Notes: generated by a model from the letters alone, not told the origin. A stretch of 64,000 bases of DNA from an uncultured Helicobacter sp. (GCA_964630205.1 CAZVTM010000002.1:31235-95234), one strand, 5' to 3'. Shown: positions 14,538 through 39,811, counted from the stretch's first letter. Made by a program: numbers and translations.

Positions 14538-15821
14538 TCATTCCCAAGTAACCCTATTTCTTCCGTTTAATTTTGATTCGTACAATTTTTTATCGGCAAT
14601 AGCTACGTATATCTCTACTTTCGCCTCTTTTATATCCACTTCTGCAGCAGGGGATATCTCTATCGCCCCCATACTAACAGTTGTTTTTATCTCTTTTCCC
14701 TCAAACATACATACGGTATTTTGAAATGCCAGCCTTATCTCTTCTAGTTTGTTTTTGGCGTTTACTATATTTGTATTTGGAAGCAATATCGCAAACTCTT
14801 CGCCGCCGTAACGTATAATGACGTCAGAATCTCTAATCTTTGATTTTGCCGTTTTGACAAACTCTTTTAACATCATGTCTCCGGCAACATGGCCGTATGT
14901 ATCATTAAGATTTTTGAAATAATCCAAATCACACATAGCCAAAACAAAAGAAGTTGCCGTAGCCAAAGAGAGCTCATATTGATTTGCGAAAATATAAGAA
15001 AGGGAGTTACGATTCAGCGCTCCCGTCATCTCGTCTTTAGCTGCTTTTTTGATGATAAGAGTGTTGTCGATAAGTGCTAGTTCTGCGCCGATAGAAAGCG
15101 ATATCATTTCGCATTTTTCCAAATAACTCATAATAACGTTAAAATCTTTCGCCCTTTTGTCAAGCTGCTTGTTTATTACATTACCCAAATCATGAAGCGT
15201 TTTATGGATTCTCACTATTTCATTATATTTTGAATTATTCTTTATGACGGATTTTGCCTTGCCGCATAGCCATTTACCAAATTCACATAATCTTGGATTT
15301 AGCTCCGGTATTCTCGAGTTATCTAGTTTTTGAATGGCAATCGCCAAACTGCTTAGCCACGCCAAATGATCCTCGTAAAACCTTACAACGTTCTTTTCCA
15401 ACATATCTTTTAGGCTATTAGTCCTATATGTGTTGGCCTCTAAAAGTTTTTTGAGATAATCGTCTAAATATTGATAGGCGACTATATTTTCAATATCCAC
15501 ATAAAGCGAGTAAAGATCATATATCTCTGTTTTTGCCCAGCTTTTCAGCAAAATATCGGCTAACGTATTTTTCAAATAGGCTATTTCGTTTACAAGTACT
15601 ATATATGGGGTTTGCATGGCAATATTTAGCCTTGCCAGCTTCTCGTATTCAGTCACAAGCTTATGCCTGCTCCCCTCGACCGTAAACAACAATAAATTTC
15701 TAAAACTATGTTTTAGCAACTCCAGTCTTTTGGTGTCCATTTCGTACATATTTATGATGTACTTCTCCAAGAAATCTTCCATAATTTGGTCGATTTTTGG
15801 CTCTATATAGTTCCCTATCAT
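14538..15821 (-). CDS. Diguanylate cyclase with chemoreceptor zinc-binding (CZB) domain and I-site
   Basis: C-terminal GGDEF domain (RYGGEEF) has an RxxD I-site (RDSD) 5 residues upstream. The central segment HLAW...CEFGKWL...HKTLH matches the CZB 3His/1Cys motif. Confidence 0.85.
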   Translation of the reverse strand: MIGNYIEPKIDQIMEDFLEKYIINMYEMDTKRLELLKHSFRNLLLFTVEGSRHKLVTEYEKLARLNIAMQTPYIVLVNEIAYLKNTLADILLKSWAKTEIYDLYSLYVDIENIVAYQYLDDYLKKLLEANTYRTNSLKDMLEKNVVRFYEDHLAWLSSLAIAIQKLDNSRIPELNPRLCEFGKWLCGKAKSVIKNNSKYNEIVRIHKTLHDLGNVINKQLDKRAKDFNVIMSYLEKCEMISLSIGAELALIDNTLIIKKAAKDEMTGALNRNSLSYIFANQYELSLATATSFVLAMCDLDYFKNLNDTYGHVAGDMMLKEFVKTAKSKIRDSDVIIRYGGEEFAILLPNTNIVNAKNKLEEIRLAFQNTVCMFEGKEIKTTVSMGAIEISPAAEVDIKEAKVEIYVAIADKKLYESKLNGRNRVTWE

Positions 15822-15908: not shown

Positions 15909-17318
15909 ATGAACATACTACTTACAGGTGCAACGGGCTATATCGGCAGACGCCTAAAACATAGGCTTCTAAAAGAAAGCGACGTAAAATTGAGACTTTT
16001 TGTCAAAAAAGGGCAAAGCGTAAAAACCTCCGATACGGTAGAAATAGCTGAAGGTAGCACATTTGACCAAGAAAGCCTAGATAGCGCCCTAAAAAATATC
16101 GATACGGCATACTATCTCATCCACTCGATGGAGTCCAAAAACTACCGGGAACTAGACAAAAAAAGCGCGCAAAACTTCCTTGACTCCTGCATAAAAAACG
16201 GGGTAAAACGGATAATTTATTTGGGTGGACTCGGCGAAAAAGAGAGCGCAAGCGAACATTTACTTAGCAGGATAGAAACGGGAGAGATACTAAGTTCTCG
16301 TCCGGATGCCGTCCAGACGCTATGGTTTCGCGCGGGGGTCATCATAGGCTCAGGCTCCGCAAGTTTTGAGATAGTCCGCAACCTCGTTGAAAAGCTCCCT
16401 TTTATGATAACGCCGAAATGGGTAAATACCCTCTGTCAGCCGAGCGCAGAAGCAGACGTAATAGAGTATTTGGCAAATGCGTCAATACTGCAAAATAAAG
16501 AGAGTGCCATAATAGATATAGGCGGTGAGGCGATGAGTTACCGCGAGCTTTTGCTTGGATACGCTAGAGCCGTAGGGCTAAAAAGAGTCTTGATTCCCGT
16601 TCCTTTTTTCTCGCCGAAGCTCTCCTCGTATTGGCTTACCCTCATGACTCCCGTACCCTACTCCGTCGCATCGGCGCTTATCGAGGGGCTAAAAAGCGAA
16701 GCGGTAGTCAAAAACGATAACGCAAAAAAATATTTCCCCCACATCGTCCCGCTAGACTACGAAACCGCCGTCAAAAAAGCACTCGAAGACATCCAAAACT
16801 CTCAGATAATCAGCAGATGGTCGGATGCCTCAAAAGACGCATGGGAAAACGACCACTCCAAAATAGCGGAGGCGGTCTTTGTCGATAGGCAGAGTATCGA
16901 ACTGGGCGGCACCCCTCCGCAAAAAGTTTTTGAGACGATATCCGCCGTCGGGGGCGATAACGGGTGGTTCGGGTATGAAACCCTATGGCAAATCAGAGGG
17001 TTTATAGACAAGATAATCGGCGGATACGGCCTCTCCAGAGGGAGACGAGACCCGAAACATCTGAGGGTCGGGGATAGCGTAGACTTTTGGAAAGTGGTAG
17101 ATGTCAGGGAAAACGAGAGACTTTTGTTGTTTGCTCAGATGAAACTCCCCGGCAAAGCTTGGCTAGAGTGGACGATAAAAGACGGCAAACTCCACCAAAG
17201 CGCATATTTTTATCCGCACGGCCTCATGGGACGGCTATACTGGTACGCCATGGCACCGTTTCACCTGTTTATATTCGGCGGAATGGCAAAAAATATCATA
17301 AAAAAGGGTAAAAATTGA
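15909..17318 (+). CDS. NAD(P)-binding SDR-family protein with C-terminal DUF2867-like domain
   Basis: Start set at MNILLTGATGYIGRRL (Rossmann GxxGxxG). The track's longer start overlaps the divergent promoter region. TTGA overlap with pglA. Confidence 0.75.
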   Translation: MNILLTGATGYIGRRLKHRLLKESDVKLRLFVKKGQSVKTSDTVEIAEGSTFDQESLDSALKNIDTAYYLIHSMESKNYRELDKKSAQNFLDSCIKNGVKRIIYLGGLGEKESASEHLLSRIETGEILSSRPDAVQTLWFRAGVIIGSGSASFEIVRNLVEKLPFMITPKWVNTLCQPSAEADVIEYLANASILQNKESAIIDIGGEAMSYRELLLGYARAVGLKRVLIPVPFFSPKLSSYWLTLMTPVPYSVASALIEGLKSEAVVKNDNAKKYFPHIVPLDYETAVKKALEDIQNSQIISRWSDASKDAWENDHSKIAEAVFVDRQSIELGGTPPQKVFETISAVGGDNGWFGYETLWQIRGFIDKIIGGYGLSRGRRDPKHLRVGDSVDFWKVVDVRENERLLLFAQMKLPGKAWLEWTIKDGKLHQSAYFYPHGLMGRLYWYAMAPFHLFIFGGMAKNIIKKGKN

Positions 17319-18412
17319 AAATCGGCTTTCTCTCTCATCTGGATCTCAACCTGTATGCTTTTAGGCTCCCCGTCATATTGGAGTTAAAACGGCTAGGACA
17401 TACGCCGATAGCGATAGCGCCGGAGGGGGCTTATCTGCAAAAAATCAGAGAGACCGGAATAGAGTGCGTAACCTACGGTATAGAACGCAAAAGTCTAAAT
17501 CCCCTAAAAGAGATAAAAGCGATACAAAATATATATGAAGCGATAAAACCGCTAAATCTCGACATCCTTCACACGTTTACGGCAAAACCGAATATCTACG
17601 GAACGATAGCCGGACGGTTAGCCAAAGTGCCTCGTATCATAAATCTAGTAGAGGGGCTTGGGAGTTTTTATCTCGAAAACGACCTAAAAAGCAGAGTTGT
17701 CCGCACCCTCATAGAGCGGCTATACAAACAGATTTTCAGACTTTCAAACGCCGTAATGTTCGTAAACTCCGACGATCCGGAGTATATGAGCCGCAAAAAC
17801 ATTATAGACCCGAAAAAAATAGTCAAAATAAACGGTGTCGGGATAGACACAAAAGAGTGGAGCCGCAAAAAAGCCGCAAAGGAGCCGCTAACCGTCGTGA
17901 TGGTTGCCAGACTCATCAGGCACAAAGGGGTAATCGAATATTTACAGGCATCTCAAAATCTAAAAGAGAGATACGGGGATGTACGCTTTGTATATGTCGG
18001 CGGCGAGGATTTCGGCAACCATAGCGGACTGGGAAAAGAGATATTTGAAAACTACAAAGGGGTGGAGTATCTAGGCGAGAGGAGCGACATCAAAGAGCTG
18101 CTTGAAGATTCGCATATATTTGTACTCCCAAGCTACAGAGAGGGGCTGCCTAGAACCGCTTTGGAGGCTATGAGTATGGAGGTGGCGGTGGTCGGAGCCG
18201 ATGCGTGCGGGACTAGAGATGTCGTCCGAGACGGCAAAACAGGGCTTTTGGTTCCGGTAAAAGAGAGTCAGGCGCTTGAGGCGGCAATCGAAAAGCTGAT
18301 AACCGATGAAAAACTACGCAACAAACTGACAAAAACAGCCAGAGAGGTATGCGTAAAAGAGTACGACATAAAACCCATAGTAAAAGCACATTTGAGGGTT
18401 TACGGGATATAG
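17315..18412 (+). CDS. pglA: GT4 glycosyltransferase, PglA-like (first GalNAc transferase of N-glycan pathway)
   Basis: 365 aa, TTG start. It appears collinear with my recollection of C. jejuni PglA: MxIGFLSH..Y.FR.P, LVEGLGSFY, YLG.RSD..ELL....IFVLPSY.EG.P. Confidence 0.75.
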   Translation: MKIGFLSHLDLNLYAFRLPVILELKRLGHTPIAIAPEGAYLQKIRETGIECVTYGIERKSLNPLKEIKAIQNIYEAIKPLNLDILHTFTAKPNIYGTIAGRLAKVPRIINLVEGLGSFYLENDLKSRVVRTLIERLYKQIFRLSNAVMFVNSDDPEYMSRKNIIDPKKIVKINGVGIDTKEWSRKKAAKEPLTVVMVARLIRHKGVIEYLQASQNLKERYGDVRFVYVGGEDFGNHSGLGKEIFENYKGVEYLGERSDIKELLEDSHIFVLPSYREGLPRTALEAMSMEVAVVGADACGTRDVVRDGKTGLLVPVKESQALEAAIEKLITDEKLRNKLTKTAREVCVKEYDIKPIVKAHLRVYGI

Positions 18413-18688
18413 CAGCTTTTGAAAGCACGATATAACGCATCCCAAAAAGCGCATGATGCCTCTTTATCTCTTGCAAATCTGAGTTTTACCCATGCCTGCG
18501 ACAGCGCCGCATTTAAAAACAAAAATATTAAAAAGCTTATAATAAGATTATAATTATGCAAAAAAAGAATCACTTATTTTTTACACAATTTTATGCAATT
18601 GTAAGTGTGCGCCATATATAATGGTCGATCTCTGGTTATAGATAAAATAACTTGAGATATATTTATAAAGAACAAAAGGAGTCAGTGA

Positions 18689-19360
18689 ATGCTAAAGAAA
18701 GTTATTTTGGCCGGATTACTTGTAGTAAGCGGTGCCAATGCCGGAATGTTTGATTCTGTTGTCTCTGCTGTGGGGGGGGGTTCGACAGCAAAAGCTGTTG
18801 ACGGCAACGCCCTAGACTCTGTTATACAAAACTACTTTACGGCAAAAGCCCTATTACAAAAATCTTCAGAAGCCCTAAGCAAAGCTATACTTTCAAAAGA
18901 AGAATCCGGAAAATTCGAATCGGCACTCAAAGCGGCTGAATCCATCTCAGATCCAAAAGAAAAAGATGCAGCCATCAGCAAAGCCGTAAGCGATGTTCAA
19001 ACAGCCCTAAAAGCTGCTATAGAGTCCAAGCAAATTATAGAGCAAGTTAAAAAAGCCGATAAAAAAACAAGAGAACAGCTCGTCGTCGGCGGATTCAATT
19101 TTATACTGTCTGGACTCAAGTATAAAGATACTCTAACTAGTGCAAAAGATATGGTGTCTTCATTGTCGTCAAACCCTACCGCCGCAATGCAGTATACATC
19201 ACAACTCGGACAACTAAAAGATATGGTCGCAACACTTCCGGAAAACATAACATTGATAGCCACAATCGGAAGTAAATTGGTAGATTTGTACAAAGCCGGA
19301 AAAGTAAACTTTACAGCCCCTACAAGCAGCTCGCAAGCCCCAAAAGAAAGCAGTAAATAA
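18689..19360 (+). CDS. Secreted helical protein, putatively phase-variable (G9 tract)
   Basis: AAGGAG RBS and signal peptide MLKKVILAGLLVVSGANA. A G9 run at codons 28-31 is in frame as sequenced. No family recognised. Confidence 0.75.
   Translation: MLKKVILAGLLVVSGANAGMFDSVVSAVGGGSTAKAVDGNALDSVIQNYFTAKALLQKSSEALSKAILSKEESGKFESALKAAESISDPKEKDAAISKAVSDVQTALKAAIESKQIIEQVKKADKKTREQLVVGGFNFILSGLKYKDTLTSAKDMVSSLSSNPTAAMQYTSQLGQLKDMVATLPENITLIATIGSKLVDLYKAGKVNFTAPTSSSQAPKESSK
18772..18780 (+). repeat. Poly-G (G9) homopolymeric tract inside a CDS
   Basis: Direct read: tg-ggggggggg-ttc. G8 or G10 gives stop codons within about 15 codons. Confidence 0.9.
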
Positions 19361-19381
19361 CAAACTATAGATTTCCCTTTT

Positions 19382-19405
19382 CTGCCTTTTTGTGAAAAAA
19401 GGCAG
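19382..19405 (+). terminator. Hairpin after the first cassette gene (possible attenuating terminator)
   Basis: CTGCCTTTTT-gtga-AAAAAGGCAG forms a 10-bp perfect stem 20 nt after the stop. No clean 3' U-run, so strength is uncertain. Confidence 0.35.
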
Positions 19406-19438
19406 GAGAGCACACATCAAACAAATCAAGAGGTAAAG

Positions 19439-20867
19439 ATGAACTTTAAAAGCGTTGTAGCCGCTACGACTCTACTAGCCTCCATAGCCATTCCCCCAAC
19501 AACTACTTGCATTAAAAGCCACAGGTGAGGGTTCCGTAGCCATAGCTTCAAGCGACCCGCAAACAGTAAAAAGCACAGCCGAACGAAAGGCAATGGCCGA
19601 TGCAGTAATATCGGCAATCAAAAAGCTCCAAGGCTCAATAAACGTACCGCCGGAAGATCCCAGAATACTTCAGTTAATTAAGCAAAGAGATTCATTTTTA
19701 AAAAGCGAACCTAAGATTGAGAGAGATAAATCCGATTCCGCCCTTTATGCGGTAAAAATAACGCTTGATATTGACGATACGGCTTTTGTTGAAGAACTCG
19801 GAAATGTTCGGCTCGGAGCTTTAAACAATAAAACGGAAAATCTTGGGAGTATAGTTGTTTTTATAGACGAAGCGGTAAAAAGAGATATGCTAAATGCAAG
19901 CGAAGTTCCGCTTGAAGAGAGGATAGACTACAAAAGAGACAATAGCAAAAGCTACAAAGAGAACACATCAAAAAGTTCGGCTTCATATAGTGCATCAAGT
20001 ATGAGCATAAAAGATAAAAGTTCGGCTTCATATAGCGATAAAAGCTCAGCTTCAGGAAGGGCAAGCTCGGAGGCATCATACGACGATAAATATGCCGCCA
20101 GAGCCTCATCGCAAGCCGCAGTATCCGGAAACGGCGTAGGCGCATACGGCAGAGACGATGCCGCAGTTGCCGCAAGCTCAAAAGGCTCCGCAAAACAATC
20201 GGCTAGTTATGCCGCTAGTAGCGAATCGAAAGGGGCATATAGCAAGGATTTTCAAGCATCGGCGTCGAGTGCGTCTAGCAAAAGCTCAGCTTCTTCAAGA
20301 AACGTAAATAGCCAAGTTAACGATAAAGAGGAGTACCACTACTCAAAAACCATCAATACCGAAGTTTTAAAACCGCAAAGTTCACTAAACGACGCTATGA
20401 AAAATGAACTTGAATCGGCACTCGGAAAATTCGGCGTAACTTTTGAAGATGGAAGCGGAATGTTGGCCGACTTCAATAAAGTATCAAAGAAAAAATATGC
20501 TTCATACAATGAAGCCATGAGAAATGATGGCGATAATTTTAAAAATTTTATCCGCAAAAAAAGACCTAGTGCAAGCTATATAGGTATTGGAACTCTTGAG
20601 ATAGGCTACAATCCATCCAAGGACTCTACCGGTGATTTTAGATGCGGATTGAATGCGGGAACGATTAGTATCATCCCGCTAAAAACAAATGCGAAACTTC
20701 CTGGCGGCTCACTCAAAACCATCAAGAAAAGCGACTCCACATCTGAAGGTTGTATGAATAATATCAGGATTGATTCGGCTACGGAACTGGGAGCAAAAAT
20801 AGGTTCTTTGATTCAAAAAAATGCCAAGGACAAAGATTTGAAGGCAAAACAGGAGATGTTTGATTGA
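19439..20867 (+). pseudogene. Secreted LPP20/FlgP-like protein with Ser/Ala-rich linker; signal-peptide exon out of frame
   Basis: AGAGG RBS plus the ATG at 19439 encodes MNFKSVVAATTLLASIA..., then hits TGA at 19526. The 424-aa body (track ORF from 19593) is open from 19488 in the +1 frame. Loss of one base, for example in the C5 run 19493-19497, joins them. The mature N-terminus ATGEGS...AERKAMADAV..LQG resembles the LPP20/FlgP family (weak). Confidence 0.6.
19971..20035 (+). repeat. Exact 20-nt direct repeat 45 nt apart within the Ser-rich coding region
   Basis: AAAAGTTCGGCTTCATATAG occurs at 19971-19990 and 20016-20035, encoding KSSASYS twice. Further degenerate SSAS units follow. Confidence 0.8.
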
Positions 20868-22897
20868 CGACAATAAGTCTACACAAAAAAATAAGCTCCG
20901 TATTGGCGACACTACTTGCGTCTGCCGTATCCGCCGTTGCCGGAGATTCTTTTGCTATCTGAGCACCGAAAATGGTAATAACCGAGGATAGTATCGAAAA
21001 AAACCAAGCATTTCACTACTCCAAAGGGGCAAATAGCCAGAATATCCTAGAGGCTTTTAATACGGCAATAAGGAAATATTATCCGGATATAAAAACAGAG
21101 CTTGATAAAAAAAATGTAAAAAATAGTTTTGCCGTTTATCTGAAAGTCTCAAGAGCCTCAATATACGAAGAGCAGTTGCCTAACTCATCGGTAAAAAGCT
21201 ACACTCTACCTGTAACTGCCAGTATAAACTTTATCAATATGGCAAACGGCGATATTATCTACTCCCACTCATACACAAATATTGTTCAGGGAAATTTGGC
21301 CGCATCCGGAGACGAAAAAATAAAAAAACTAGCCGAATGGTATACAACTGGATATTCATCGCTATTTGAACACCTAGCAAAAGAAGCTAGTCAAAAATTT
21401 AAGCCACATAAACTATCTACAAAAGTCATTGGAAAATACGACGGCCTATTGATACTTGATAAAGGGCTAGACGGTGGCATAGCCAAAGGTGATACGCTAG
21501 ACAGGGAAAACGGAAGCGTAGAAGTCTTATATTCCGCAAACGGATACTCCATAGGTCAGGATGAATTCCCAAAGTATCCAAGTCAAGATGGTGATATTCT
21601 CGTAAAAACATACAACGGCTCTTTGGACGGTGTAAAAAAACCAAGAGTTACGCTGCTGGATATATCAACCGATAAGCAAATCGGGGATTTGCCGCCGGAA
21701 CAAATGCTTTACGATGTTTTTTCGGACAAAATAGCACAACAAAGCAGTTTTACCGTCACTTCGATCGGCAAAGATTTTTATGCTGCCAAACGAGACATTA
21801 TTTCAAAGTCAGGTGTAAGAGTACTGGAGGGCAAAAGATCAGTACCAGATTATTATATCAGACTCTCGTATGACGGCCCATTTTACTACTCAGCTCCGAC
21901 GAATCTCGACTATGCAGAACAAAGGCATTATTATGCCGGAGCATGCGGCGAACTTGTGGACATAAGCGGCAGAGTATTTCACAGCGACTGTGCATTTGAC
22001 AATATCTCCGATGAGATTGTCCACGGCAAGGGACTCTCCAAAAGCTCAAGATATGAGACGGTAATGAAAAATGCGACGTTATCATTGGCGGAGTCTTTCT
22101 CAAAAGGAGTTTCGTTTGATAAAGTCTCATACAAAATCACAAATCTAAAAGCCTCAAAAATAGAGTTTGAAGATGAAAAAAACCTATTGGCCCCCGGCGC
22201 ATCTATCACAATATATAAAAATATCGGTTCGGTGGGCGACAAAAAAGACGTTTTAATCCCCATTCAGGAAGCAACCATAGATGAGAAAAAAGAAGGTACT
22301 GCGATTGCAACCTTGGATTCCATCAAAATAACTCCGAAGCTAAACGTAGAGAAAGGTGATTTTATAGTCGAAGATATAGTGTCCGCAAACACTCCGTCAG
22401 ACGCAAAGCTATTTAGTTTTTGCGCAAAATCAGGGAAAATGGATATCGGCACTATTGACGGGTATGACTCTGTGACTAGATATTTAGTAAAAAAAACTTT
22501 TAAACAATTACTATATGACGGGCAAGGGCTAACGGAGGCTATACGAAAAAATATAGATGAAGCGAAATTTGAGCACACGCCGAAAGTTACGACCCCCTCC
22601 ACAAAATACTGCGTTCAGCCCCTATACTGGCTTGAGCCTAAAGGCAAAAAACAGTCTGAACATATCGGCTTTGAAACCGCATTATTTGACATAACATCTG
22701 GCTTCAGGATTTATGAAACAAATGAAATCAAAAACAAAACACCGAAAGATGCCGCCTTTGTATCCAAAAAATCATTCGAAACAAATCTTGCACTCGAAAT
22801 CCCAATAAAAAGTTCGAAAGAGTACCTCAGGATAGAGCTTTTGAAAAATTCATTGCCTAGCTTTAGCTCGTCAGTATCATCCATTCAAACACCGTAA
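20864..22897 (+). pseudogene. Large secreted protein gene interrupted by an in-frame TGA directly after its signal peptide (downstream ORF 20972..22897 intact)
   Basis: AGGAG is 8 nt upstream of the TTG at 20864 (TTGA overlap with the previous stop). It encodes MTTISLHKKISSVLATLLASAVSAVAGDSFAI, then TGA at 20960-20962, then APK-MVITEDS... in the same frame. The ATG at 20972 has only a weak RBS. Confidence 0.6.
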
Positions 22898-22909
22898 GGA
22901 TTAGAGTAA

Positions 22910-23329
22910 ATGAAAAAAGTCGCAATGCTACTTTGTATTACCGGATTGCTTTTCGGAGAGTCGTCAAGCCATGCAGAATCTAGTTCTTCCTCTTTTAGCT
23001 CCTCCTCTTCGCAAAGTTTCTCTAAAACTATCACCGACGACAAGGTAAGCTCAAATACAAAAAAATATGTTGAATCTTCAAACGGCAACGAAGTGTTATT
23101 TTCACTTGGAAAAAACACACAAACACTATCCGGCTCCCTATTTGTCAAACAAGGCAATATAAGTTGCGAATTTACCGATAAAGAATTGACAAAAAACGGA
23201 AGCACATATGTGTTTAAAGACCGTGACAGCGGATGTATTTTTACGATAAAAAATAACTCTAAATCAATTTCCGTAGACTACACAAAAACCAAGTGTATTA
23301 ACGCCGGATACTGTAAAATAAGGCAATAA
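22910..23329 (+). CDS. Secreted Ser-rich small protein
   Basis: 139 aa with signal peptide MKKVAMLLCITGLLFG, followed by SSSHAESSSSSFSSSSSQS. Confidence 0.7.
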   Translation: MKKVAMLLCITGLLFGESSSHAESSSSSFSSSSSQSFSKTITDDKVSSNTKKYVESSNGNEVLFSLGKNTQTLSGSLFVKQGNISCEFTDKELTKNGSTYVFKDRDSGCIFTIKNNSKSISVDYTKTKCINAGYCKIRQ

Positions 23330-23331
23330 CG

Positions 23332-23559
23332 ATGAATAATAATCAGCAATCAACACTGTTAGGCATTATCGCATTTTTGTGTTTTGTCAATTTATTAATA
23401 GGAGCCTATCTCCTAAAAAATACATTTGACAAGAACGAGCAAGACGTAACTCCAAACGTAAGCACCGAAAAAAACTACGATGAACTAAATGAAAAGCTTG
23501 ATAAGTTTTTTGAAAAACAAAATCAAGATATGCAAAAACTTTTTGAAGGAAATAAATGA
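23332..23559 (+). CDS. Small single-pass membrane protein
   Basis: 75 aa with one TM (LLGIIAFLCFVNLLIGAYLL). Tightly packed between its neighbours, with a 4-nt overlap downstream. Confidence 0.55.
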   Translation: MNNNQQSTLLGIIAFLCFVNLLIGAYLLKNTFDKNEQDVTPNVSTEKNYDELNEKLDKFFEKQNQDMQKLFEGNK

Positions 23560-23939
23560 AAATTGGATTATCTCTGGCGACACTTGTTTTGTCGATATTA
23601 TTTGCAGGGTGTGCCTCTTATCAAACGCATACACACGTTGGTGGACAAACCGAAAAACCAAGTATATCCGGAATAGAAAACAAAAACGGTTCTCTGACGC
23701 TTACTCTAAAAGGAAGTTCATATTATGGAAATCTTGTATTTGATGCAAAAAAGAGATTTGAATTACACCCTATGATTGCAAATATCACAGGTAATGCAAA
23801 AGGGCATTTGGTGTCAAAAACAGGCAAAACAATCACCTGCGTGATGGAACTAATGGAAGAGACAAAAAGCGGCACAGGATATTGCTTAGAAGAGGACAAT
23901 CCTCAAATTTTAAAATTTAGTGTAATTAATATGGACTAA
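23556..23939 (+). CDS. Lipoprotein
   Basis: 127 aa with a lipobox (LSILFAGC) after a hydrophobic leader. Confidence 0.7.
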   Translation: MKIGLSLATLVLSILFAGCASYQTHTHVGGQTEKPSISGIENKNGSLTLTLKGSSYYGNLVFDAKKRFELHPMIANITGNAKGHLVSKTGKTITCVMELMEETKSGTGYCLEEDNPQILKFSVINMD

Positions 23940-24016
23940 GCGGAATCGCCTAATAACTGGCGCAATACACAAAAACCAAAAACCGCTATAATTGCCAAAA
24001 AAATTTTGGGATACCG

Positions 24017-26116
24017 ATGCGAAAAATAGTGCAATACGATAAAAAAACGGCCATATTATTTGCCATAGCTTTTTTGATCAGTTTTTTTGCCCGTATGTAT
24101 TGGGTGGATTACGCTTCAAACGTCGAAGAGTACAAATTTAACAATCAGGTTATGATCAATACGAACGACGGCTACTTCTATGCCGAAGGGGCAAGAGATC
24201 TTATCAAAGGCTCTCACGAGGCAGGAGATAGAAGCGCCGTCACAGAACCGGTGGCTATAGCTACCGCCGCTCTATACAAAATCCTCCCTTTTTCAATAGA
24301 AACGCTAATGCTATATATGCCGGCTGTACTGGGCTCACTAGTCGTAATCCCCGTTATTTTGATAGGTAGATTTTTTGGCCAGCCTATGATGGGCTTTTTT
24401 GCGGCGATGTTTGGCGCAATTACCCACAGCTACTACAACCGCACAATGGCGGGATACTATGATAGCGATATGTTCGCCCTTGTCGTGCCCCCTTTTGCCG
24501 CTGCATTTCTCATCGGCTACTTCAAAGAAAAAAGAATTTTGTGGCAAGCGCTGTTTTTGGCCTCTCTCGCCCTCTCAAAAATACTTTACCCGCAGTCTTT
24601 TGCGTGGATGGCGGCGACGGTCGGTTTTGCGTTTTTGTATACGCTAGTTTTTGATAGAAAAAACAAAGAGATATACCTAACTCTCATACTTGCGCTTATT
24701 GCTGTTTGCGACTTGCCTACGGCGGCAAAAGCAGTCATTATAACGGCTAGTTTGTACTTTCAGCCAAGATTGACGCTTGACTACAAATCGTTAATTGCTT
24801 TTGCAATAGCGGCACTGGCCGTATTTGCATATTTTGGGGGTCTGACTCCGGTAATCGGGTCGTTAAACGCATACCTTTTCAAAGACAGCCTAACGGTAAC
24901 AAGTACGCTCAAATACTATGACGTAGTGCAGACGGTACAGGAAGCAGGCAAGATGGACCCAAACCTGTTTGCCTCCCGAATATCAGGCTCAATGCCTATC
25001 TTTATCGCCGCAATTATCGGTTATGGACTTTTTATCAAAAAAGAGAAGCTTTTTGCCCTGACCCTTCCTATTTTCGGGCTTGGGCTTTTTGCTTATTTTA
25101 GCGGCCTTAGATTTACTGTTTATGCTGTTCCATTCGCCGCTCTCGGGCTTTTTTATCTGATTTTTTGGGGACTCAAAAATCTTGACGAACGGGCAAAAAT
25201 AGCGGTTGCCTCACTCTCATTTCTCATAGCCTCTATACCAAACTTCTACCATATCTACGACTACAAAGTCGACACGGTATTTCCAAGCGGGATAGTCAAG
25301 CAGATTTCAGAGCTTGGCAAAAAAGCGTCAAGAGAGGATTATGTTTTTACATGGTGGGATTACGGCTATCCGGTTAGATATTACGCCGATGTCAAAAACC
25401 ACTCCGACGGCGGCAAACACGACGGAGCAACTAACTTTATAGAGTCTTTTATTATCTGCTCGACTAGTCAAAATGCGGCGGCAAACATGATGAGAGAGTC
25501 CGTAGAGGCTTACGAGGAGCTAATAAAGCAAGGTAAAGAGCAAAAAACGGCAACACTAGAGTATATGCTCGCCAAAAACGGCTTCAAAAACGAAGATTAT
25601 CAGCAATATCTATCGGCGCTAGCCTCAAATACTCATAAAAAAAGTGTAAAAACGAGAGATGTCTATCTATTTTTGCCATACGAAATGTTTGGAATACTCC
25701 CAACCATAAAGCTATTTTCAAATGTTGATTTGAATACCGGAGCTGAAGTCTCAAGTCCGTCTTTTTTGATGTTCAACCACTATAACGAAACTGAAGATAG
25801 CATAGATTTCGGCGGTGCAGTTTTTGACAAAAAAACAAAAACCATAAAATTCGGCGAAAAAACAATACACCTCAAAAGCGTAAGCATCTCCTATTACGAC
25901 AAAAACGGCACACTCGCAACCAAAACCGACAGCGGCTCCAGCACCGGAGAGCTACACCTCATATCGCTTCCGACATACGGCGCATACATACTAGCGGATG
26001 ATGAGATGTTTAACTCGCTATTCATACAAATGTTTGTCTTTGAAAATTACGACAGGAATCTATTTGAAAAAGTCTCAAGCACATATGAGGCAAAAATCTT
26101 TAGGCTCAAAATCTGA
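24017..26116 (+). CDS. pglB: Oligosaccharyltransferase PglB (STT3 family)
   Basis: 699 aa with a polytopic N-terminal half and the catalytic WWDYGY motif ([13 protein letters not shown]). Followed by pglC and pglD. Confidence 0.95.
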
Positions 26117-26118
26117 CG

Positions 26119-26727
26119 ATGTACAAAGCGGTATTCAAAAGGGTGTTTGATTTTTTGCTAGCGCTTTTTTTGTGCACGATTTTTCTGCCGATTTTTGCGG
26201 TCACTTTTTTTGTTGTTAGAGCCAAGCTAGGCTCTCCCGTCTTTTTCACCCAAGAACGCCCGGGGATAGGCGGTAAGATATTTAAAATTTATAAATTCCG
26301 TACAATGACAAACGAGCGAGACGAAAGCGGCGAGCTACTTCCAGACGAAGCAAGGCTAAAAGGGGTCGGCAAGACGATAAGACGGCTAAGCCTAGACGAG
26401 CTACCGCAACTACTCAATGTCCTAAAAGGGGAGATGAGCTTCGTAGGGCCCCGCCCGCTTCTGCCCGAGTACCTCCCGCTATACAACGCTAGACAAGCCA
26501 CGAGGCACACCGTACTCCCAGGTATCACGGGTCTAGCGCAGGTGATGGGGCGAAATGCGATAAGCTGGGGCGAAAAACTGGAGTGGGATGCAAAATACGT
26601 CGAAAACATATCATTCAAACTAGACCTCCAAATCATCCTCTGGACGGTAAAAAAAGTCCTAAAAAGCGAGGGGGTCAGCAAAGATGGGATGGCGACGACC
26701 GATAAGTTTACTGGAAATAACGGTTGA
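26119..26727 (+). CDS. pglC: Undecaprenyl-phosphate diNAcBac-1-phosphate transferase PglC
   Basis: 202 aa, near-collinear with C. jejuni PglC (KRxFDFxLAL, KIYKFRTM, [22 protein letters not shown]). Confidence 0.93.
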
Positions 26728-27329: not shown

Positions 27330-27338
27330 AGGCCTGAT

Positions 27339-28344
27339 ATGAATAACTTGACGCAAAACGACAATCTATACCAAAGCGTCAAAAACATCCTCCAAACCGC
27401 AAGAGACAACGCCTACAGACAAGTCAACTTCATCATGGTTGAGGCGTATTGGAATAATCGTAGAGGAAGAACAAAACGGCAAAGACAGGGCGGAGTACGG
27501 CTCATATCTCATCAAAGAGCTTTCATCGAGGCTAACGAGCGAGTTTGGCAAGGGGTTTACGGCTAGCAACTTGAAAATGATGAGGCAGTTTTATCTTGCT
27601 TTTCCAATTGGACACACACTGTGTGACCAATTGAGCTGGAGCCATTATCGCCTTATTATGAGGCTAGACAATCCACAAGCCAGACTTTGGTATATGGAAG
27701 AATCCGCCAAAGCAAACTGGAGCGTACGGGCGCTAGAGCGGCAAATCGGAACATTTTATTACGAGCGGATAATATCGAGCAAAGATAAACAACCCGTAAT
27801 AGCGGAAGCGACAAGCAATACCAAAGACCTACAACTCACCCCAAAAGACATCATCAAAGACCCTTATGTGTTGGAGTTTTTGGATCTCAAGCAAAACAAT
27901 GCTTTTTATGAAAGCGACTTAGAATCCGCCCTTATCGAAAAAATACAGGAATTTTTGCTGGAACTTGGGCGTGGGTTTGCTTTTGTAGCGAGGCAAAAGA
28001 GGGTCAAGACCGAGGCGAGCGATTTTTATATTGACCTAGTTTTTTACAACTACATCCTCAAATGCTTCGTCCTCATAGACCTCAAAAGCGGCAAACTAAC
28101 CCATCAAGATGTCGGTCAGATGGATATGTATGTGCGGATGTACAACGATATGGAAAAAGCCGAAAACGACAATCCGACGATAGGTATCATACTCTGCACC
28201 GACAAAGACAACACCGTCGTCAAATACTCTGTTTTGAATGAAAACGAAAATTTGTTTGTCTCGAAGTATCAGCTGTATTTGCCGACGGAAGAGGAACTAA
28301 AAAGAGAGATTGAGAGGGATGTTTTGGAGCTTGGGCGGCGGTAG
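27339..28344 (+). pseudogene. DUF1016/YhcG-type PD-(D/E)xK nuclease gene, frameshifted
   Basis: The N-terminal 35 aa (..ARDNAYRQVNFIMVEAYW) and the body (IGIIVEEEQNGKDRAEYGSYLIKELSSRL..GKGF..NL..MRQFY) are in different frames. The break is at about 27447-27460, where TATTGG and ATTGGA share nucleotides. The C-terminus has the D..ExK-like core (IDLVFYN..VLIDLK). Confidence 0.7.
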
Positions 28345-28489
28345 TTTTGTGTGGAAAAAAGTAGTCTGCCCTCGTCTTTTGTATAAGATCGAAATTGCCA
28401 CCGCTCGGTGCCGGAATAAAAAGTATCAAAGACGCTTTAAAAAGTGATTTATCGACTATAGACTTCGATAAACAGACAAAGGACTAATT

Positions 28490-28762
28490 ATGCTAAGAGA
28501 TAAAAATGGACAATACCTAAAGGAAGGGGATTATATTTGTATATGCGATAAGTATTTGGTGCAAATTCATGAATTTCCAAGCGTAGGCATGGGATTTAAT
28601 GTAAAAGATATTTGTGGAGGCTGCCCTACTATCGACCCCGGTTGCCTCAAGGCAAACCATAGAAATATTGGTAATACTCAAGGACAAATACCATTAAGCT
28701 TTTTAGATTTGACAAAGATTGAAAAATGCACAAAAGAAGAAAGGCTAGAACTTTGTATTTGA
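28490..28762 (+). CDS. Hypothetical Cys-rich small protein
   Basis: 90-aa ORF inside the low-GC insert. No recognisable motif, and coding status is unverified. Confidence 0.35.
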   Translation: MLRDKNGQYLKEGDYICICDKYLVQIHEFPSVGMGFNVKDICGGCPTIDPGCLKANHRNIGNTQGQIPLSFLDLTKIEKCTKEERLELCI

Positions 28763-28770
28763 CGGAAAAT

Positions 28771-28778
28771 GGGGGGGG
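28771..28778 (+). repeat. Intergenic poly-G (G8) tract
   Basis: Direct read: aaaat-gggggggg-ttagg, 9 nt after the stop of the 28490 ORF and 120 nt upstream of the 28898 ORF. Confidence 0.9.
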
Positions 28779-28897
28779 TTAGGTATATTCAATCTTCACT
28801 TTTCCCTCACTTTCGCCCTCTCGAACGGGAGCGCATATAGCACACGGTCTATGCAAAATAACACCGGCTTTATCTGAACATCTGTTATAATCACAAA

Positions 28898-29131
28898 ATG
28901 AACGAAAAAGACCAAATCGATAAGCTTTCAAAAATCGCCGATATTGTCAACAAAAAGCTTATAGCTCTTTTGGCGATAGATGGCGGGGTTGGGGCATATG
29001 CCGTGAAATTTATAGAGCAAAACAATGTTTTTGGTTATGCTCTCGGCATGATATTTATCGTAGTATCTATCGGCGTGGCTTATAACTACAATGAGTTAAA
29101 CAGACTCAAACAAGCGGTGGAGGAATTATAA
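28898..29131 (+). CDS. Small two-TM membrane protein
   Basis: 77 aa with two hydrophobic helices. Confidence 0.45.
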   Translation: MNEKDQIDKLSKIADIVNKKLIALLAIDGGVGAYAVKFIEQNNVFGYALGMIFIVVSIGVAYNYNELNRLKQAVEEL

Positions 29132-29132
29132 A

Positions 29133-29237
29133 ATGGAAGATATAGGACTTTTGGGCTTAGCTGTAGGTTTTGTGTTTGCTTGGATAGTAGGGTATATTGC
29201 CCACAAAAAACACTGGAAAATTGGAAATATTTTTTAA
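29133..29237 (+). CDS. 34-aa single-TM peptide (not in ORF track)
   Basis: GGAGG is 9 nt upstream of the ATG at 29133. Product: MEDIGLLGLAVGFVFAWIVGYIAHKKHWKIGNIF. Starts 1 nt after the previous stop. Confidence 0.35.
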   Translation: MEDIGLLGLAVGFVFAWIVGYIAHKKHWKIGNIF

Positions 29238-29326
29238 ACTCATACAGATGACATCCAATGGCACCGTAAGCCAATCCAAGCTAATTATCGAAAAAGGTGT
29301 GGGCTATTTTTTAAAGAAGCTTCAAA

Positions 29327-29638
29327 TCAATACCCCTGAATAATCAAATCCATAGCTTCAAAAATTTCAGCCCTATAGTCGCCAATATTTTGAATAGGCT
29401 TTGTCAACTCTTCAGCAGGATATGAAGCTAGTTCATCAAATAGTGCGATATATTTTTTGCCCTTTATTGTTATACCAAGATGTAGCGTTTTTACGGGGAA
29501 TTTTATCATTGAAGACGGTGTTAACGGAACTACGATTCTTGTGGCTAGTTTTTTAAGCGTATCAGACTGAATGTCTAGCAGATAAGGAAACTCTTTGTTT
29601 GTGGCTCTGTTTTTGTTGGCATAGACATCAAATTGCAT
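29327..29638 (-). CDS. ccdB: CcdB-family gyrase-poisoning toxin
   Basis: 103 aa with MQFDVY....... and LLDIQSD....L.TR.V.PL, collinear with F-plasmid CcdB (MQFKVY..LFVDVQSD..RRMVIPL). Confidence 0.85.
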   Translation of the reverse strand: MQFDVYANKNRATNKEFPYLLDIQSDTLKKLATRIVVPLTPSSMIKFPVKTLHLGITIKGKKYIALFDELASYPAEELTKPIQNIGDYRAEIFEAMDLIIQGY

Positions 29639-29639
29639 A

Positions 29640-29924
29640 CTAAAATCTTCTCACGCTATCACCAAAAACCCCTCTTTTTGCGACCCTCTCATTTTGTTCA
29701 TTTATCGCCTCGGCGTTTTCCTTTTCCCAAAGAGCCGCCTTTTGTTTTGCCAAAATCTCTTTTTCGATATTTTCAAGCTCTATTACTCTGTTTCTATGGA
29801 TTATAGTCAGCTCAAGCATCTCTTGTTCTTTTGGTTTTATATTGAGGTCTATCTTACCGTCTCTTTGAAGCATTTGCGCAATCGCATCGGACTTTAGATG
29901 CGTAAAAGTACTAAAAGACATCAT
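29640..29924 (-). CDS. ccdA: CcdA-family antitoxin
   Basis: Start set at the ATG at 29924 (GGAGATATAAA RBS). The C-terminal W.KEN.EAI...N..V...G.F.D..R.F matches CcdA. 1-nt gap to ccdB. Confidence 0.8.
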   Translation of the reverse strand: MMSFSTFTHLKSDAIAQMLQRDGKIDLNIKPKEQEMLELTIIHRNRVIELENIEKEILAKQKAALWEKENAEAINEQNERVAKRGVFGDSVRRF

Positions 29925-29938
29925 TTTATATCTCCAAC

Positions 29939-29968
29939 TATCGATACATTTATCGATGATATTATCGA
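29939..29968. promoter_or_regulatory. Three TATCGA(T) repeats at 12-bp spacing upstream of ccdA (putative CcdAB operator)
   Basis: TATCGATA at 29939, TATCGAT at 29951 and TATCGAC at 29963, immediately 5' of the ccdA start on the minus strand. Confidence 0.5.
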
Positions 29969-30048
29969 CAAAAAACTTAAAACACGCCACGCCGCCGCAT
30001 AACCCTAAAATCGCTATAATCACGCAAAAATTACGGCTAGGAAAACAG

Positions 30049-31176
30049 GTGAGCGAACGCATTTTCTTATCAGCCCCGCACATGGGCGGCAATGAACTTA
30101 AATACATACAAGAAGCTTTTGATGCAAACTATATAGCTCCGATAGGTGAGCAGATAACGAAATTTGAAGAGGCGATAAAGACTTATACGGGAGCGAAACA
30201 TGCCGTAGCTCTCTCTAGCGGTACGGCGGCGATACATCTAGCCCTTCGTACGCTTGGTATCAAAGACGGCGATGAGGTGCTGGCTTCATCATTTACCTTT
30301 ATAGGCGGTATCGCTCCTATCATGTATGAGAGATGTACGCCTTTTTTTATTGATTCGGATGAAGATAGTTGGAATATTGACCCATTACTACTCCTTGAGG
30401 CGTTAGAATCACGCAAAAAAAGCGGCAAAATGCCAAAAGCTCTCATCGTAGCCCACCTCTACGGTCAAGCGGCAAAGATGGATGAAATAACGGCGATATG
30501 CGACAAATACGGTGTCGCTATCATAGAAGACGCCGCAGAGTCGCTGGGTGCGACAATAAATGGAAAACACACGGGAACTATCGGCAAGGCAGGGATTTAT
30601 TCGTTTAACGGTAACAAAATCATCACCTCAAGCGGCGGCGGTATGCTTGTAACTGACGATGAGCAAATTGCCAAAGAGGCTAGATTTCTCTCCACGCAGG
30701 CGAAAGAGCCGTACTTGCACTACGAGCACGAGACATTCGGCTACAACTATCGCATGAGCAATATAGTGGCGGCGATAGGCAGAGGGCAGATGGAAGTATT
30801 GCCGCAGAGAGTCGAGAGACGCAGAGAGATTTTTGCCCTTTACCGTGAACTGCTCAAGGATATCCCTGAACTAAAATTTATGCCGGAAATCGCAGGAAGC
30901 CGTGGCAATAGATGGCTTACGACTTTTTATATGGACGCAAAGCTAAAAGCAACTCCAAACGACATCATAAAGGCGCTTGAAGAGCAAAATATCGAGTCAA
31001 GGCCGCTATGGAAACCGATGCATACACAGCCTGTGTTCAAAGATGCGCCGCATATCACAAACGGCTTTTCAGAGATGTTATTTGAAAGAGGTATATGCCT
31101 ACCGTCGGGCTCGTCGATGGATGATGAGGCGGTAATGCTGGTCGCCAAAATAGTGAAGGATGTAGTCCAAAAATGA
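30049..31176 (+). CDS. pglE: UDP-4-keto-6-deoxy-GlcNAc aminotransferase PglE (DegT family)
   Basis: Collinear with C. jejuni PglE from (V)SERIFLSAPHMGGNELKYI. GTG start at 30049 with AGGA upstream. The track's 5' extension overlaps the ccdA promoter. Confidence 0.9.
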   Translation: MSERIFLSAPHMGGNELKYIQEAFDANYIAPIGEQITKFEEAIKTYTGAKHAVALSSGTAAIHLALRTLGIKDGDEVLASSFTFIGGIAPIMYERCTPFFIDSDEDSWNIDPLLLLEALESRKKSGKMPKALIVAHLYGQAAKMDEITAICDKYGVAIIEDAAESLGATINGKHTGTIGKAGIYSFNGNKIITSSGGGMLVTDDEQIAKEARFLSTQAKEPYLHYEHETFGYNYRMSNIVAAIGRGQMEVLPQRVERRREIFALYRELLKDIPELKFMPEIAGSRGNRWLTTFYMDAKLKATPNDIIKALEEQNIESRPLWKPMHTQPVFKDAPHITNGFSEMLFERGICLPSGSSMDDEAVMLVAKIVKDVVQK

Positions 31177-37599: not shown

Positions 37600-38626
37600 T
37601 TAGGCTTTATCTATCGTTTTCGCATACTCTTTGGGACTCATACCGTACCATTTTTTGAAAGCCCGCAGGAATGCGCTAAGCTCAGAATATCCGAGACATA
37701 CTGCAATGGTAGTGGCATCTGCGCCTTTTGATAGATAATGAAGCGCCAATTTTTGTCTCACCTCCGACAGTACCGCCGCAAAACTCGTATCGTCTTCTTG
37801 CAGCTTTTTTTGGAGGCTTCTTGGATGAAGCCCCATTTTTGCCGCAACATCTTGCAAAGAAAACTCAAAACCGTCCATCGATGCCAAGATAATGCCGGCA
37901 ACTTCATCTTTGATGCTACCGTGAAAATAGAGCCCAAGAGATTTTTGGGCCTCTGCCTCAAATATTTTCAAAAGCGACGGATTTTGATGTATCGTCTCCA
38001 CCTCAAGAGCCTCTTTTGAGAATATAACCGCATTTTTATCCTCGTCAAAATACAGTTTTTCGCCAAATATCCGTTTGTATTCGCTCATATCCGCAGGCCG
38101 AGAATGTCTAAATGTTGCGTATTTTGGGGTTATTTTTGCCGATGCGACCTTGTTGAGAAGACTTAATGCAGATGAGAGATGAATCTCGGATTGGTATCTA
38201 CCTAGATGAAGCCACTCCGAACCGTCTTTGATATAGAAACTTAGTTTGTATCTGTTTTTTGTCTCAGCCAATACCGGCTTTAGCGTAGCGCCTATTAGCG
38301 GATAGTATTTGCAAAGTTTTTGGAGCGTTTCGCCTATATTTTTTGAATGAAGCAGCAGGTAGCCCAGAATACCGAGCGAATGAGGGTTTGCCCGCTCCAC
38401 CTAACTTGAAAGATAGATTGGTGTCATCCGTGAAAATAGTGATGGCTTCAAAGAGTTCGCCCAAAAACGACACCTTTACCCTTGCATTGGGAGCCTGTAA
38501 CTCAGGTATCGAAGTCCCTCTATCCGCTAGAAATTTTTCCGCATCAAAACCGTAGCTTCTTTGTAAAAACATCAATATATGCCATAAAGCTTCGGCAGCA
38601 ACCGTTCTATCTTTTTTTGTTCGCAA
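37600..38626 (-). pseudogene. AraC-family transcriptional regulator, frameshifted between sensor and rest
   Basis: The C-terminal HTH_AraC (..LGYSELSAFLRAFKKWYGMSP) lies in the 266-aa ORF. The N-terminal 80 aa lie in the overlapping 120-aa ORF. The frames meet at about 38395-38403 (..SFKLGG | ERANPHSLGILGY), and removing one G restores a single ORF. Confidence 0.65.
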
Positions 38627-39091: not shown

Positions 39092-39413
39092 ACTCCACAA
39101 AAGCCTCATCTTCACCCTCGATAAAGTCCAATACTTCAAGGCCCAAAAACTCCGTAGAGTCGCAAAAACGCTCTATCTCTTTCGCCCATGCGGCTCTATC
39201 CTCTTTGAAGTCCTGATTTTGCGGATGGGTCGTTCGTATGATGTAGCTAGAATCCCCCGCCGCATAGGCGGAGTATCTAGTCACCATGAGTTTGAGCGCA
39301 TCCGCCGCCTCTACGCGGTCGTGGTACACCTCGCAACATTTTTTATACTTTAGCCTACTGCCACACGGGCATTTTGAGTTTGGGGTTATTTTCATTTTGT
39401 ATCCTTGTCCCAA
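38997..39413 (-). CDS. SEC-C motif / YchJ (UPF0225) family protein
   Basis: 138 aa with an N-terminal CPCGS..KYKKCC SEC-C zinc motif followed by an NTF2-like body. Confidence 0.75.
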   Translation of the reverse strand: MGQGYKMKITPNSKCPCGSRLKYKKCCEVYHDRVEAADALKLMVTRYSAYAAGDSSYIIRTTHPQNQDFKEDRAAWAKEIERFCDSTEFLGLEVLDFIEGEDEAFVEFKAKLSDGILHEKSRFVRENGRWLYHSGEFL

Positions 39414-39811
39414 TTTTCTAATTTCAAGTCACCCACCCTCTCAAACTCTTTTGTGTTGTTCGTCACAAGCGTAGCACCCATAGATATGGCGTGAGCGGCA
39501 ATTAGTAGGTCATTTGCGCCGATAACGCTTCCGGATTTTTCAAGTGTTGCCCTTATGCTTCCGTACTCTATAGCGGCTTTGTCGTCGAACGGTATTATTT
39601 CTAATGGTGAGAGGAATTTTATGAGAGCAAGTTTGTTTTGCTCTTTTTTGGGCGATGAGCTTTTTGCCAACCCGTAAAACAGCTCCGCCACACTGATAGC
39701 CGATATATAGACTCTCTCACTCTCGCCCAACGCCAAGAATCTATCTAGCACCGCCTTTGGCTTGTTATTGATGATATAGATGCAGATATTGGTATCTAGC
39801 ATATAGCTCAC
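39392..39811 (-). CDS. vapC: PIN-domain toxin VapC
   Basis: MLDTNICIY N-terminus (first PIN acidic residue) and a C-terminal LVTNN.KEF motif. GTGA overlap with the vapB stop. Confidence 0.88.
   Translation of the reverse strand: MSYMLDTNICIYIINNKPKAVLDRFLALGESERVYISAISVAELFYGLAKSSSPKKEQNKLALIKFLSPLEIIPFDDKAAIEYGSIRATLEKSGSVIGANDLLIAAHAISMGATLVTNNTKEFERVGDLKLENWDKDTK

Follow-up and report, generated by a model that had tools for sequence, protein, structure and literature searches.

A window of 64,000 nucleotides (nt) from an uncultured Helicobacter sp. was analysed around a cassette of six genes, g1 to g6, which fills the 5.6 kb (18413-24016) between a gene for a PglA-like GT4 glycosyltransferase and pglB. 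The cassette is not an insertion specific to pgl, and it does not form a triple on/off system. At its core is a non-flagellar three-gene set (g1-g2-g3) with multi-domain, non-lipidated proteins of the FlgT/FlgP fold. This is an uncharacterised and moderately widespread family, counting about 200 sequence clusters from three phyla or more, and the envelope module has no family annotation; g2 and g3 are predicted to be built from the fold of flagellar H-ring, basal-disk, curli and Pel ring proteins. By analogy with these systems, the best explanation, to which we give slightly better than even credence, is one operon whose core would form a non-essential periplasmic scaffold tethered to the outer membrane. 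If such an assembly forms, it would be a new example of fold reuse in periplasmic architecture and a candidate for unexplained cryo-electron tomography densities in environmental bacteria.

The six open reading frames (ORFs), all on the plus strand, are g1 (18689-19360; 223 amino acids (aa), exported, first gene of the core), g2 (19439-20867; about 475 aa, exported, disrupted in the window), g3 (20864-22897; 677 aa, exported, TTG start, also disrupted in the window), g4 (22910-23329; 139 aa, exported, Ser-rich and Cys-containing, a lineage-specific accessory), g5 (23332-23559; 75 aa, a single-pass membrane protein, accessory) and g6 (23556-23939; a 127 aa lipoprotein with the motif LFAGC, accessory). 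They are preceded by an AT-rich intergenic leader (18413..18688, plus strand) in which an AAGGAG ribosome-binding site was read before g1, and flanked by the GT4 gene upstream (17315..18412, plus strand; Pfam Glycos_transf_1, 2.6e-36) and pglB, the oligosaccharyltransferase gene, downstream (24017..26116, plus strand; Pfam STT3 and STT3-PglB_core). ORF coordinates and flank family matches confirmed what the original prediction had described here, six co-directional and packed ORFs between a PglA-like gene and pglB. Because packing is tight, with start/stop overlaps of TTGA between g2 and g3 and ATGA between g5 and g6, the genes were assigned to an operon; a promoter and terminator scan of the cassette returned counts equal to those in shuffled sequence, so no promoter or terminator signal was assigned. 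The prediction had also held that every product carries a signal peptide, transmembrane anchor or lipobox and that two contain long Ser-rich tracts, and both statements stood: N-terminal hydrophobic leaders were visible by eye, g5 has one transmembrane segment (and a charged, probably helical C-terminal tail, judged by eye), g6 has a lipobox, and Ser-rich tracts were seen in g2 (residues about 168-295) and g4. This supports a genuine operon whose products are exported proteins, lipoproteins or membrane proteins and belong to no annotated family. Within the g2 Ser-rich linker (window 19959-20300), the exact 20-nt direct repeat AAAAGTTCGGCTTCATATAG occurs twice, 45 nt apart, together with two degenerate copies; the repeats encode KSSASYS-type units, and linker length could vary.

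For comparison within the species, seven other, independent assemblies were used (ERZ650260, ERZ650257, ERZ650312, ERZ17987011, ERZ22310471, ERZ17988686 and ERZ17987884), plus a Logan contig without g1. All seven had the identical order GT4, g1-g6, pglB, and in the six sister assemblies with listed gene calls the products of g1 to g6 were 223, 475, 677, 139, 75 and 127 aa long; the intact 475-aa g2 (P0010) was 99% identical to the window g2. Beyond the species, a word-indexed search returned only 9 relatives of g3 and 10 of g2. By exhaustive profile search the g3 family comprised 212 clusters at 50% identity (117 with E <1e-30), most of them 650-750 aa; its named members, all 'hypothetical', came from metagenome-assembled genomes (MAGs) of Campylobacterales, Agitococcus (Gammaproteobacteria) and Smithellaceae (Desulfobacterota). 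At four distant loci (L009, L011, L012 and L013) and on one contig without DNA, a g2-like gene (508-579 aa) lay immediately upstream of g3; a g1-like gene (221-242 aa) was found upstream or downstream of g3 in the distant loci with DNA, and a 221-aa gene at the downstream position in the contig without DNA. The gammaproteobacterial type has an extra small upstream lipoprotein, in which tetratricopeptide repeats were detected in L012 and not in L013. Since the trio is kept at these distant loci, which lie in unrelated contexts with no pgl or flagellar neighbours, g1-g2-g3 was taken as the core and g4-g6 as lineage-specific additions. Every related module has a homologue of g1, on one side or the other of g3. 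Homologues of g4 were found only in L003 and L006 (38-41% identity), and its lipobox Cys is present in relatives and not in the window; g6 is the most conserved accessory gene, 67-70% identical in L005, L006 and L008.

When all six proteins and 20 relatives were scanned against Pfam and NCBIfam, no match rose above noise, and PDB sequence searches with the g1, g2 and g3 profiles (the g3 profile comprising 119 sequences, E up to 10) gave no match; the earlier statement that none of the six belongs to a nameable family therefore held, profiles included. For g1, which looked mostly helical as judged from sequence alone, no PDB or Pfam relative was detectable, and a CS1-fimbrial match was at chance level (E 0.14). 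Lipobox-like motifs were found in the first 40 residues of 0/10 members of the g2 family and in 8/119 of the g3 family. Read from sequence, the core is three Sec-exported, non-lipidated proteins.

The AlphaFold2 model of g3 was of usable quality (predicted local distance difference test score 78.7, predicted template-modelling score 0.73) and resolved five domains: alpha/beta (46-178), beta-barrel (180-270), alpha/beta (275-415), beta-barrel (416-510) and alpha/beta (530-677). Foldseek matched it best, with probability 1.00, to FlgT, as seen in the Vibrio LPHT ring (8z5n_0, E 1.5e-10) and as crystallised (3w1e, E 1.7e-10); the alignment of ~395 columns spanned the whole of the 352-356-residue targets, with the three-domain FlgT fold present and two further domains in g3. 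The next matches were single-domain (HpaA, CsgG, LptE and GNA1162). The g2 model showed two confident alpha/beta domains joined by a disordered Ser/Ala-rich linker of about 130 aa (168-295), with an insertion carrying a hairpin between the first helix and later strands. Its Foldseek matches were weak (CsgG, DUF330, PelC, TolB-N, Tip-alpha, 9hmf_A and Lpp20; probability 0.9-1.0, E 1e-3 to 7e-2): 9hmf_A, which is a chain of 106 residues from the C. jejuni motor scaffold, matched with probability 0.98 and E 0.025, and Lpp20 (5ok8) weakly with probability 0.94-0.97 and E 0.04-0.075, with CsgG, DUF330, PelC and TolB-N equal or better.

A likeness of the second protein to LPP20/FlgP, noticed at first reading, thus found some support at the level of the fold (5ok8 and 9hmf_A, at weak E-values and no better than CsgG, DUF330, PelC and TolB-N) and none at that of sequence: the LPP20 model (PF02169) had no match in g2 or 10 members of its family at E up to 1, and none of 10 had a lipobox. 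Going by the models, this hint is reinforced by the FlgT-like fold of g3, which had not been anticipated. The profile and structure searches proposed with the original prediction accordingly differed in yield; sequence profiles found no family, and Foldseek gave FlgT for g3 and weak matches of CsgG/Lpp20 type for g2. An SHS2-like fold is common to FlgP, Lpp20 and FlgT, and some members of this broad family form rings associated with the outer membrane (PMC12222027). The H. pylori proteins Lpp20 (HP1456) and Tip-alpha resemble g2 in fold, HpaA resembles domains of g3, and they too belong to small envelope-protein operons in Campylobacterota; they differ in size and architecture, have no sequence similarity to g2 or g3, match g2 with weak E-values, and, unlike them, g2 and g3 are not lipoproteins. 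Shared ancestry of g2 and g3 was considered and rejected: their profile-profile probability was 0.1%, so none is detectable. A literature search on FlgT-like and FlgP-like proteins turned up nothing related.

Early in g1 lies a G9 homopolymer (18772..18780, plus strand), in frame at codons 28-31 and a candidate slipped-strand switch; only one other G/C run in the 64 kb reaches 7 or more. The other long homopolymer of the window is an intergenic G8 (28771-28778), 9 bp past the stop of a 90-aa ORF (28490-28762). Among the same-species assemblies covering the g1 tract, 7/8 (the window and six others) had G9, in frame. The eighth, L014 (ERZ650312; 94.6% nt identity), had G8, and its g1 was truncated just past the leader; in L005, a second species with 1116x coverage, the tract was also G8 and out of frame, truncating g1 after the leader. 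The presence of the tract is partly explained by codon choice, since it encodes a GGGS motif that g1 homologues have in common directly behind the leader; in L003, L006 and L008 the same Gly-Gly-Gly is encoded by interrupted codons. A homopolymer of at least 8 bases in the reading frame, whose length varies between assemblies and shifts the frame, is what is found at contingency loci, and the length polymorphism fits a putative slipped-strand switch of g1. Like the homopolymeric-tract contingency genes of Campylobacter and Helicobacter, g1 has a poly-G of 8-9 in its 5' coding region, the length of which toggles the frame between assemblies; it differs in that the tract codes for a conserved GGG and that the variation seen here is one between assemblies. 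Shorter members of the g1 cluster (85-209 aa) were considered as phase-OFF products and set aside as contig-edge fragments or chimeras rather than tract variants.

A stem-loop lies between g1 and g2 (19377..19410, plus strand), with a 15-bp stem and a free energy of -21 kcal/mol (z -3.2; 0/200 shuffles as good). Sequence-unrelated hairpins occupy the same post-g1 site in L006, L003 and L008, which gives a hairpin in 4/6 lineages including the window; that of L006 exceeded shuffles (z -3.7) and those of L003 (z -1.2) and L008 (z -1.4) did not, so that two of the four were significant.

In the mechanism proposed, g1, g2 and g3 would assemble in the periplasm as an oligomeric scaffold, in the manner of FlgT, FlgP, CsgG and PelC, tethered to the outer membrane via g6 (and via g4 in the relatives) and possibly linked to the inner membrane via g5. 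Because of the stem-loop after g1, this protein would be produced in excess over g2 and g3, and slippage at the poly-G tract would switch it on and off. The module appears to evolve fast, g1-g3 being 33-38% identical between the window and L008 against 63-90% for flanking genes, and would be dispensable. Several observations weigh against this picture. The match of g3 to FlgT is one of fold only, with low template-modelling scores because domain orientations differ; deep profiles fail to reach FlgT or LPP20, and no FlgT Pfam match was found in g3 or 10 diverse relatives. The g2 model yields weak fold matches and reaches confidence only within its two folded domains. Fast divergence of g1-g3 could reflect relaxed constraint rather than exposure. 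No post-g1 hairpin was found in L005 or L009; the G8 of L014 comes from a contig of 6.5x coverage and could be an assembly error, and that of L005 (1116x) could mark a fixed pseudogene rather than a phase variant.

In the window assembly, two genes of the core are broken. A C5 run (19493..19497, plus strand), which is C4 in all relatives, puts a +1 frameshift into g2, so that it reads MNFKSVVAATTLLASIAIPP... and then meets a premature stop at 19526-19528, the remainder continuing in another frame. In g3 an in-frame TGA (20960..20962, plus strand) stands where relatives have TGG; the residue is Trp in all nine of the homologues found first. C4 together with TGG was present in 7/7 of the other assemblies, so the frameshift of g2 and the stop of g3 are private to the window assembly. 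Since g2 itself terminates with TGA, this codon is an ordinary stop; recoding as tryptophan or selenocysteine was excluded on this ground and because relatives have TGG at the site. An exact look-up of the truncated g3 of the window found it not to be on record. With g2 and g3 broken, the module is either inactive in the strain or mis-assembled, and in this MAG it is probably inactive. The original prediction had seen three on/off lesions in the first three genes; the positions of all three (G9, frameshift and TGA) were confirmed and the G9 does vary in length, but C5 and TGA are unique to this assembly and are not switches. Before lesions of a single MAG are taken for switches, they should be compared with sister assemblies.

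The C5 frameshift and the TGA reflect either pseudogenisation of a dispensable operon or assembly error. Taken further, the second alternative holds that the lesions, and perhaps also the difference between G8 and G9, are assembly or sequencing errors and that the cassette is an intact, ordinary operon of hypothetical proteins; we regard this as a serious possibility, although we incline against it, and it accounts for the lesions only and not for the operon. The window is a MAG contig, C5 and TGA were seen in no other assembly, and L014, the bearer of a G8, has only 6.5x coverage. A second gene of the same contig is frameshifted as well, which bears on the trust to be placed in the lesions of g2 and g3: that for an AraC-family regulator (QhpR/GliR-like; 37600-38626, minus strand) is split into ORFs of 120 aa (N-terminal) and 266 aa (C-terminal) in different frames. 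However, TGG to TGA is a substitution and not a homopolymer indel, the out-of-frame G8 of L005 was read at 1116x coverage, and two lesions less than 1.5 kb apart in one operon suit the decay of a dispensable module.

The scaffold reading was also weighed against a role as flagellar motor accessory, in which FlgT-like g3 and FlgP-like g2 would surround a polar motor as an H-ring or basal-disk-like embellishment; this we consider quite unlikely. Structurally g3 is matched best by FlgT, among others by that of the Vibrio LPHT ring, and g2 weakly matches the C. jejuni motor-scaffold chain and Lpp20. The Vibrio H-ring is built from 26 FlgT, 58 FlgP and 58 FlgO, of which FlgP (lipidated at Cys18) and FlgO are lipoproteins (bioRxiv 10.64898/2025.12.02.691832); in C. 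jejuni, FlgP forms the basal disk, with a fold common to FlgT and Lpp20 (PMC12222027). The g3 model aligns with the whole of Vibrio FlgT in the same order of alpha/beta, beta-rich and alpha/beta domains, g2 probably falls in the small alpha/beta fold class of FlgP, and the three Vibrio proteins are, as is predicted for the cassette, Sec-exported periplasmic proteins encoded side by side. The Campylobacter basal disk offers a FlgP from the same phylum, with a fold class that g2 probably has as well. The differences are considerable. There is no sequence-level link from g2 or g3 to the FlgT or LPP20 families, by Pfam or otherwise, and the Pfam LPP20 model misses g2; FlgT has 377 aa and three domains against 677 aa and five in g3; g2, with 475 aa and a 130-aa disordered linker, has no lipobox and no lipid anchor, and g3 is likewise a non-lipoprotein, in contrast to lipidated FlgP and FlgO; FlgO is alpha/beta, and g1 looks helical from sequence. 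In none of the ten contexts compared does a flagellar gene adjoin the module, its first gene appears phase-variable, and the gene set is broken in this MAG. The g3 family is moreover patchy, and it is found in Smithellaceae and in Agitococcus, a twitching genus not known to be flagellated.

A wider form of the idea, still unlikely in our estimate, is that the trio is the signature of an undescribed periplasmic ring or disk of FlgT-like and FlgP-like subunits under the outer membrane, in Campylobacterota, Gammaproteobacteria and Desulfobacterota, around a flagellar motor or a pilus or standing alone. If so, the ring-building fold of FlgT and FlgP would have repeatedly been put to use beyond the motors known from Vibrio and Campylobacter.

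As unlikely to us as the flagellar accessory role is that the module serves some surface fibre or polymer as its secretion or assembly platform, like that of curli (CsgG/E/F) or PelC, with g1 as the abundant secreted subunit. The structures that g2 and g3 match in fold include CsgG and PelC (the latter of the Pel polysaccharide system), which share their alpha/beta domain fold; both are periplasm-facing oligomers, ring-forming lipoproteins of the outer membrane. The position of g1, first in the operon, followed by a hairpin and carrying a phase-variable tract, would suit this role, as major subunits of surface structures often have such a position, hairpin and tract. However, the cassette has no predicted outer-membrane beta-barrel or lipidated channel-former and no curli or Pel partner genes; g2 and g3 have neither lipobox nor lipid anchor, no CsgG Pfam match and no transmembrane hairpins identified, and g1 has no amyloid-type repeats, its CS1-fimbrial match being, as noted, at chance.

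The position of the cassette beside pgl genes is best explained, from the gene orders compared, by local rearrangement in one genus and not by function. In L008 (g3 about 36% identical) the order is Pif1, g1 g2 g3 g5 g6, GT4, pglB C D E; with the cassette upstream of GT4, GT4 and pglB are adjacent. In L006 it is SDR, rsuA-like, a 113-bp 5' GT4 fragment, g1-g6 and a complete GT4, so that a fragment of GT4 is duplicated, possibly left from an earlier state in which the cassette had a GT4 copy on either side. The L006 fragment lies upstream at 2851-2963 and the complete GT4 runs from 8409 to the contig end, on a contig that has masked N runs. L005 has the cassette between genes for a cmoB-like methyltransferase and a methyl-accepting chemotaxis protein, with a pglE-like gene 2.5 kb away on the other strand; in L003 it adjoins two-component and TonB-receptor genes, with no pgl genes nearby. 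Linkage to pgl is thus limited to one genus-level neighbourhood (the window, L006 and L008), in which order varies, and is absent in L003, L005, L009, L011, L012 and L013; since the three share one Pif1-to-pgl neighbourhood, they represent common ancestry and not independent association. An insertion specific to the pgl locus, as the original prediction envisaged it, was contradicted by this synteny, with GT4 next to pglB in L008, the cassette elsewhere in L003 and L005, and no marks of an island. The meaning it had attached to embedding in the locus falls with the variable order of GT4 and cassette, the position of L003, L005 and the distant loci outside a pgl operon, and the lack of sequons.

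That the cassette is part of the N-glycosylation system, as PglB substrates or glycan-handling factors, is most improbable: it adjoins pgl genes in the window-type, L006 and L008 arrangements, and the 77-bp gap from g6 to pglB has no terminator-like site, yet these three contexts are one shared neighbourhood, the cassette does not keep one place relative to GT4, a pgl operon is missing in L003, L005 and every distant member, and in g1-g6 there are 0 D/E-X-N-X-S/T sequons, on which ground a role as PglB substrates was rejected, and no sugar-handling domains in Pfam or NCBIfam.

Nothing marks the cassette as a mobile genomic island: at its flanks no direct or inverted repeats beyond chance 14-mers were found, and among its neighbours no recombinase, integrase or transposase gene. 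Members of the cluster to which the GT4 belongs carry the Joint Genome Institute name diNAcBac-PP-undecaprenol GalNAc transferase, and the window GT4 is 79% identical to that of L008, itself directly upstream of pglB. Against NCBIfam ProtGlycPglB, pglB scored 1.3e-159 and 533 bits, below the 1300-bit curated cut-off of the model. The G+C content of the window is 35-52%, its closest GTDB matches are 'uncultured Helicobacteraceae' MAGs, and cluster mates are labelled Campylobacterales bacterium MAGs. The organism is no Campylobacter, so the order of the pgl genes in C. jejuni, against which the gap had first been read, is the wrong reference; for a cluster that interrupts the pgl locus in a non-model Campylobacterota MAG it is an unsuitable yardstick. 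A literature search for pglB with Sulfuricurvum found nothing.

On the 3' side of pglB follow pglC, pglD, a 2.6-kb insert, pglE, pglF and metH. The gap between pglD and pglE (27330-29955) holds a DUF1016/YhcG-type nuclease gene (27439-28344) and small ORFs, a gene for a CcdB-like toxin (29327-29638, minus strand, recognised by eye) and then an ORF at 29640-30107; in L008, unlike the window, pglD and pglE are adjacent. Compared with sister assemblies of the same species (window 24017-26727, L007 10294-13068), pglB is only 65% and pglC 86% identical, and the genes on either side 98-100%; in L014 megablast does not align window 24675-26226, which covers the 3' two-thirds of pglB and the beginning of pglC, because of divergence. 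These alignments suggest that the oligosaccharyltransferase gene has undergone allelic replacement among same-species assemblies. Between the Pif1-like helicase gene and an SDR/DUF2867 gene lies a GGEEF-motif (diguanylate cyclase-like) gene of 427 aa (14538-15821, minus strand; G+C content about 36%), which is absent from the sister assemblies L001, L007 and L015-L020. A VapC (PIN domain)-like and VapB-like toxin-antitoxin pair was recognised by eye at 39392-40050 (minus strand), and relatives have a HEPN/nucleotidyltransferase pair near the Pif1-like gene; the VapBC-like and HEPN/nucleotidyltransferase pairs show the neighbourhood to be rich in small accessory modules. The window also contains a NiFe-hydrogenase operon.

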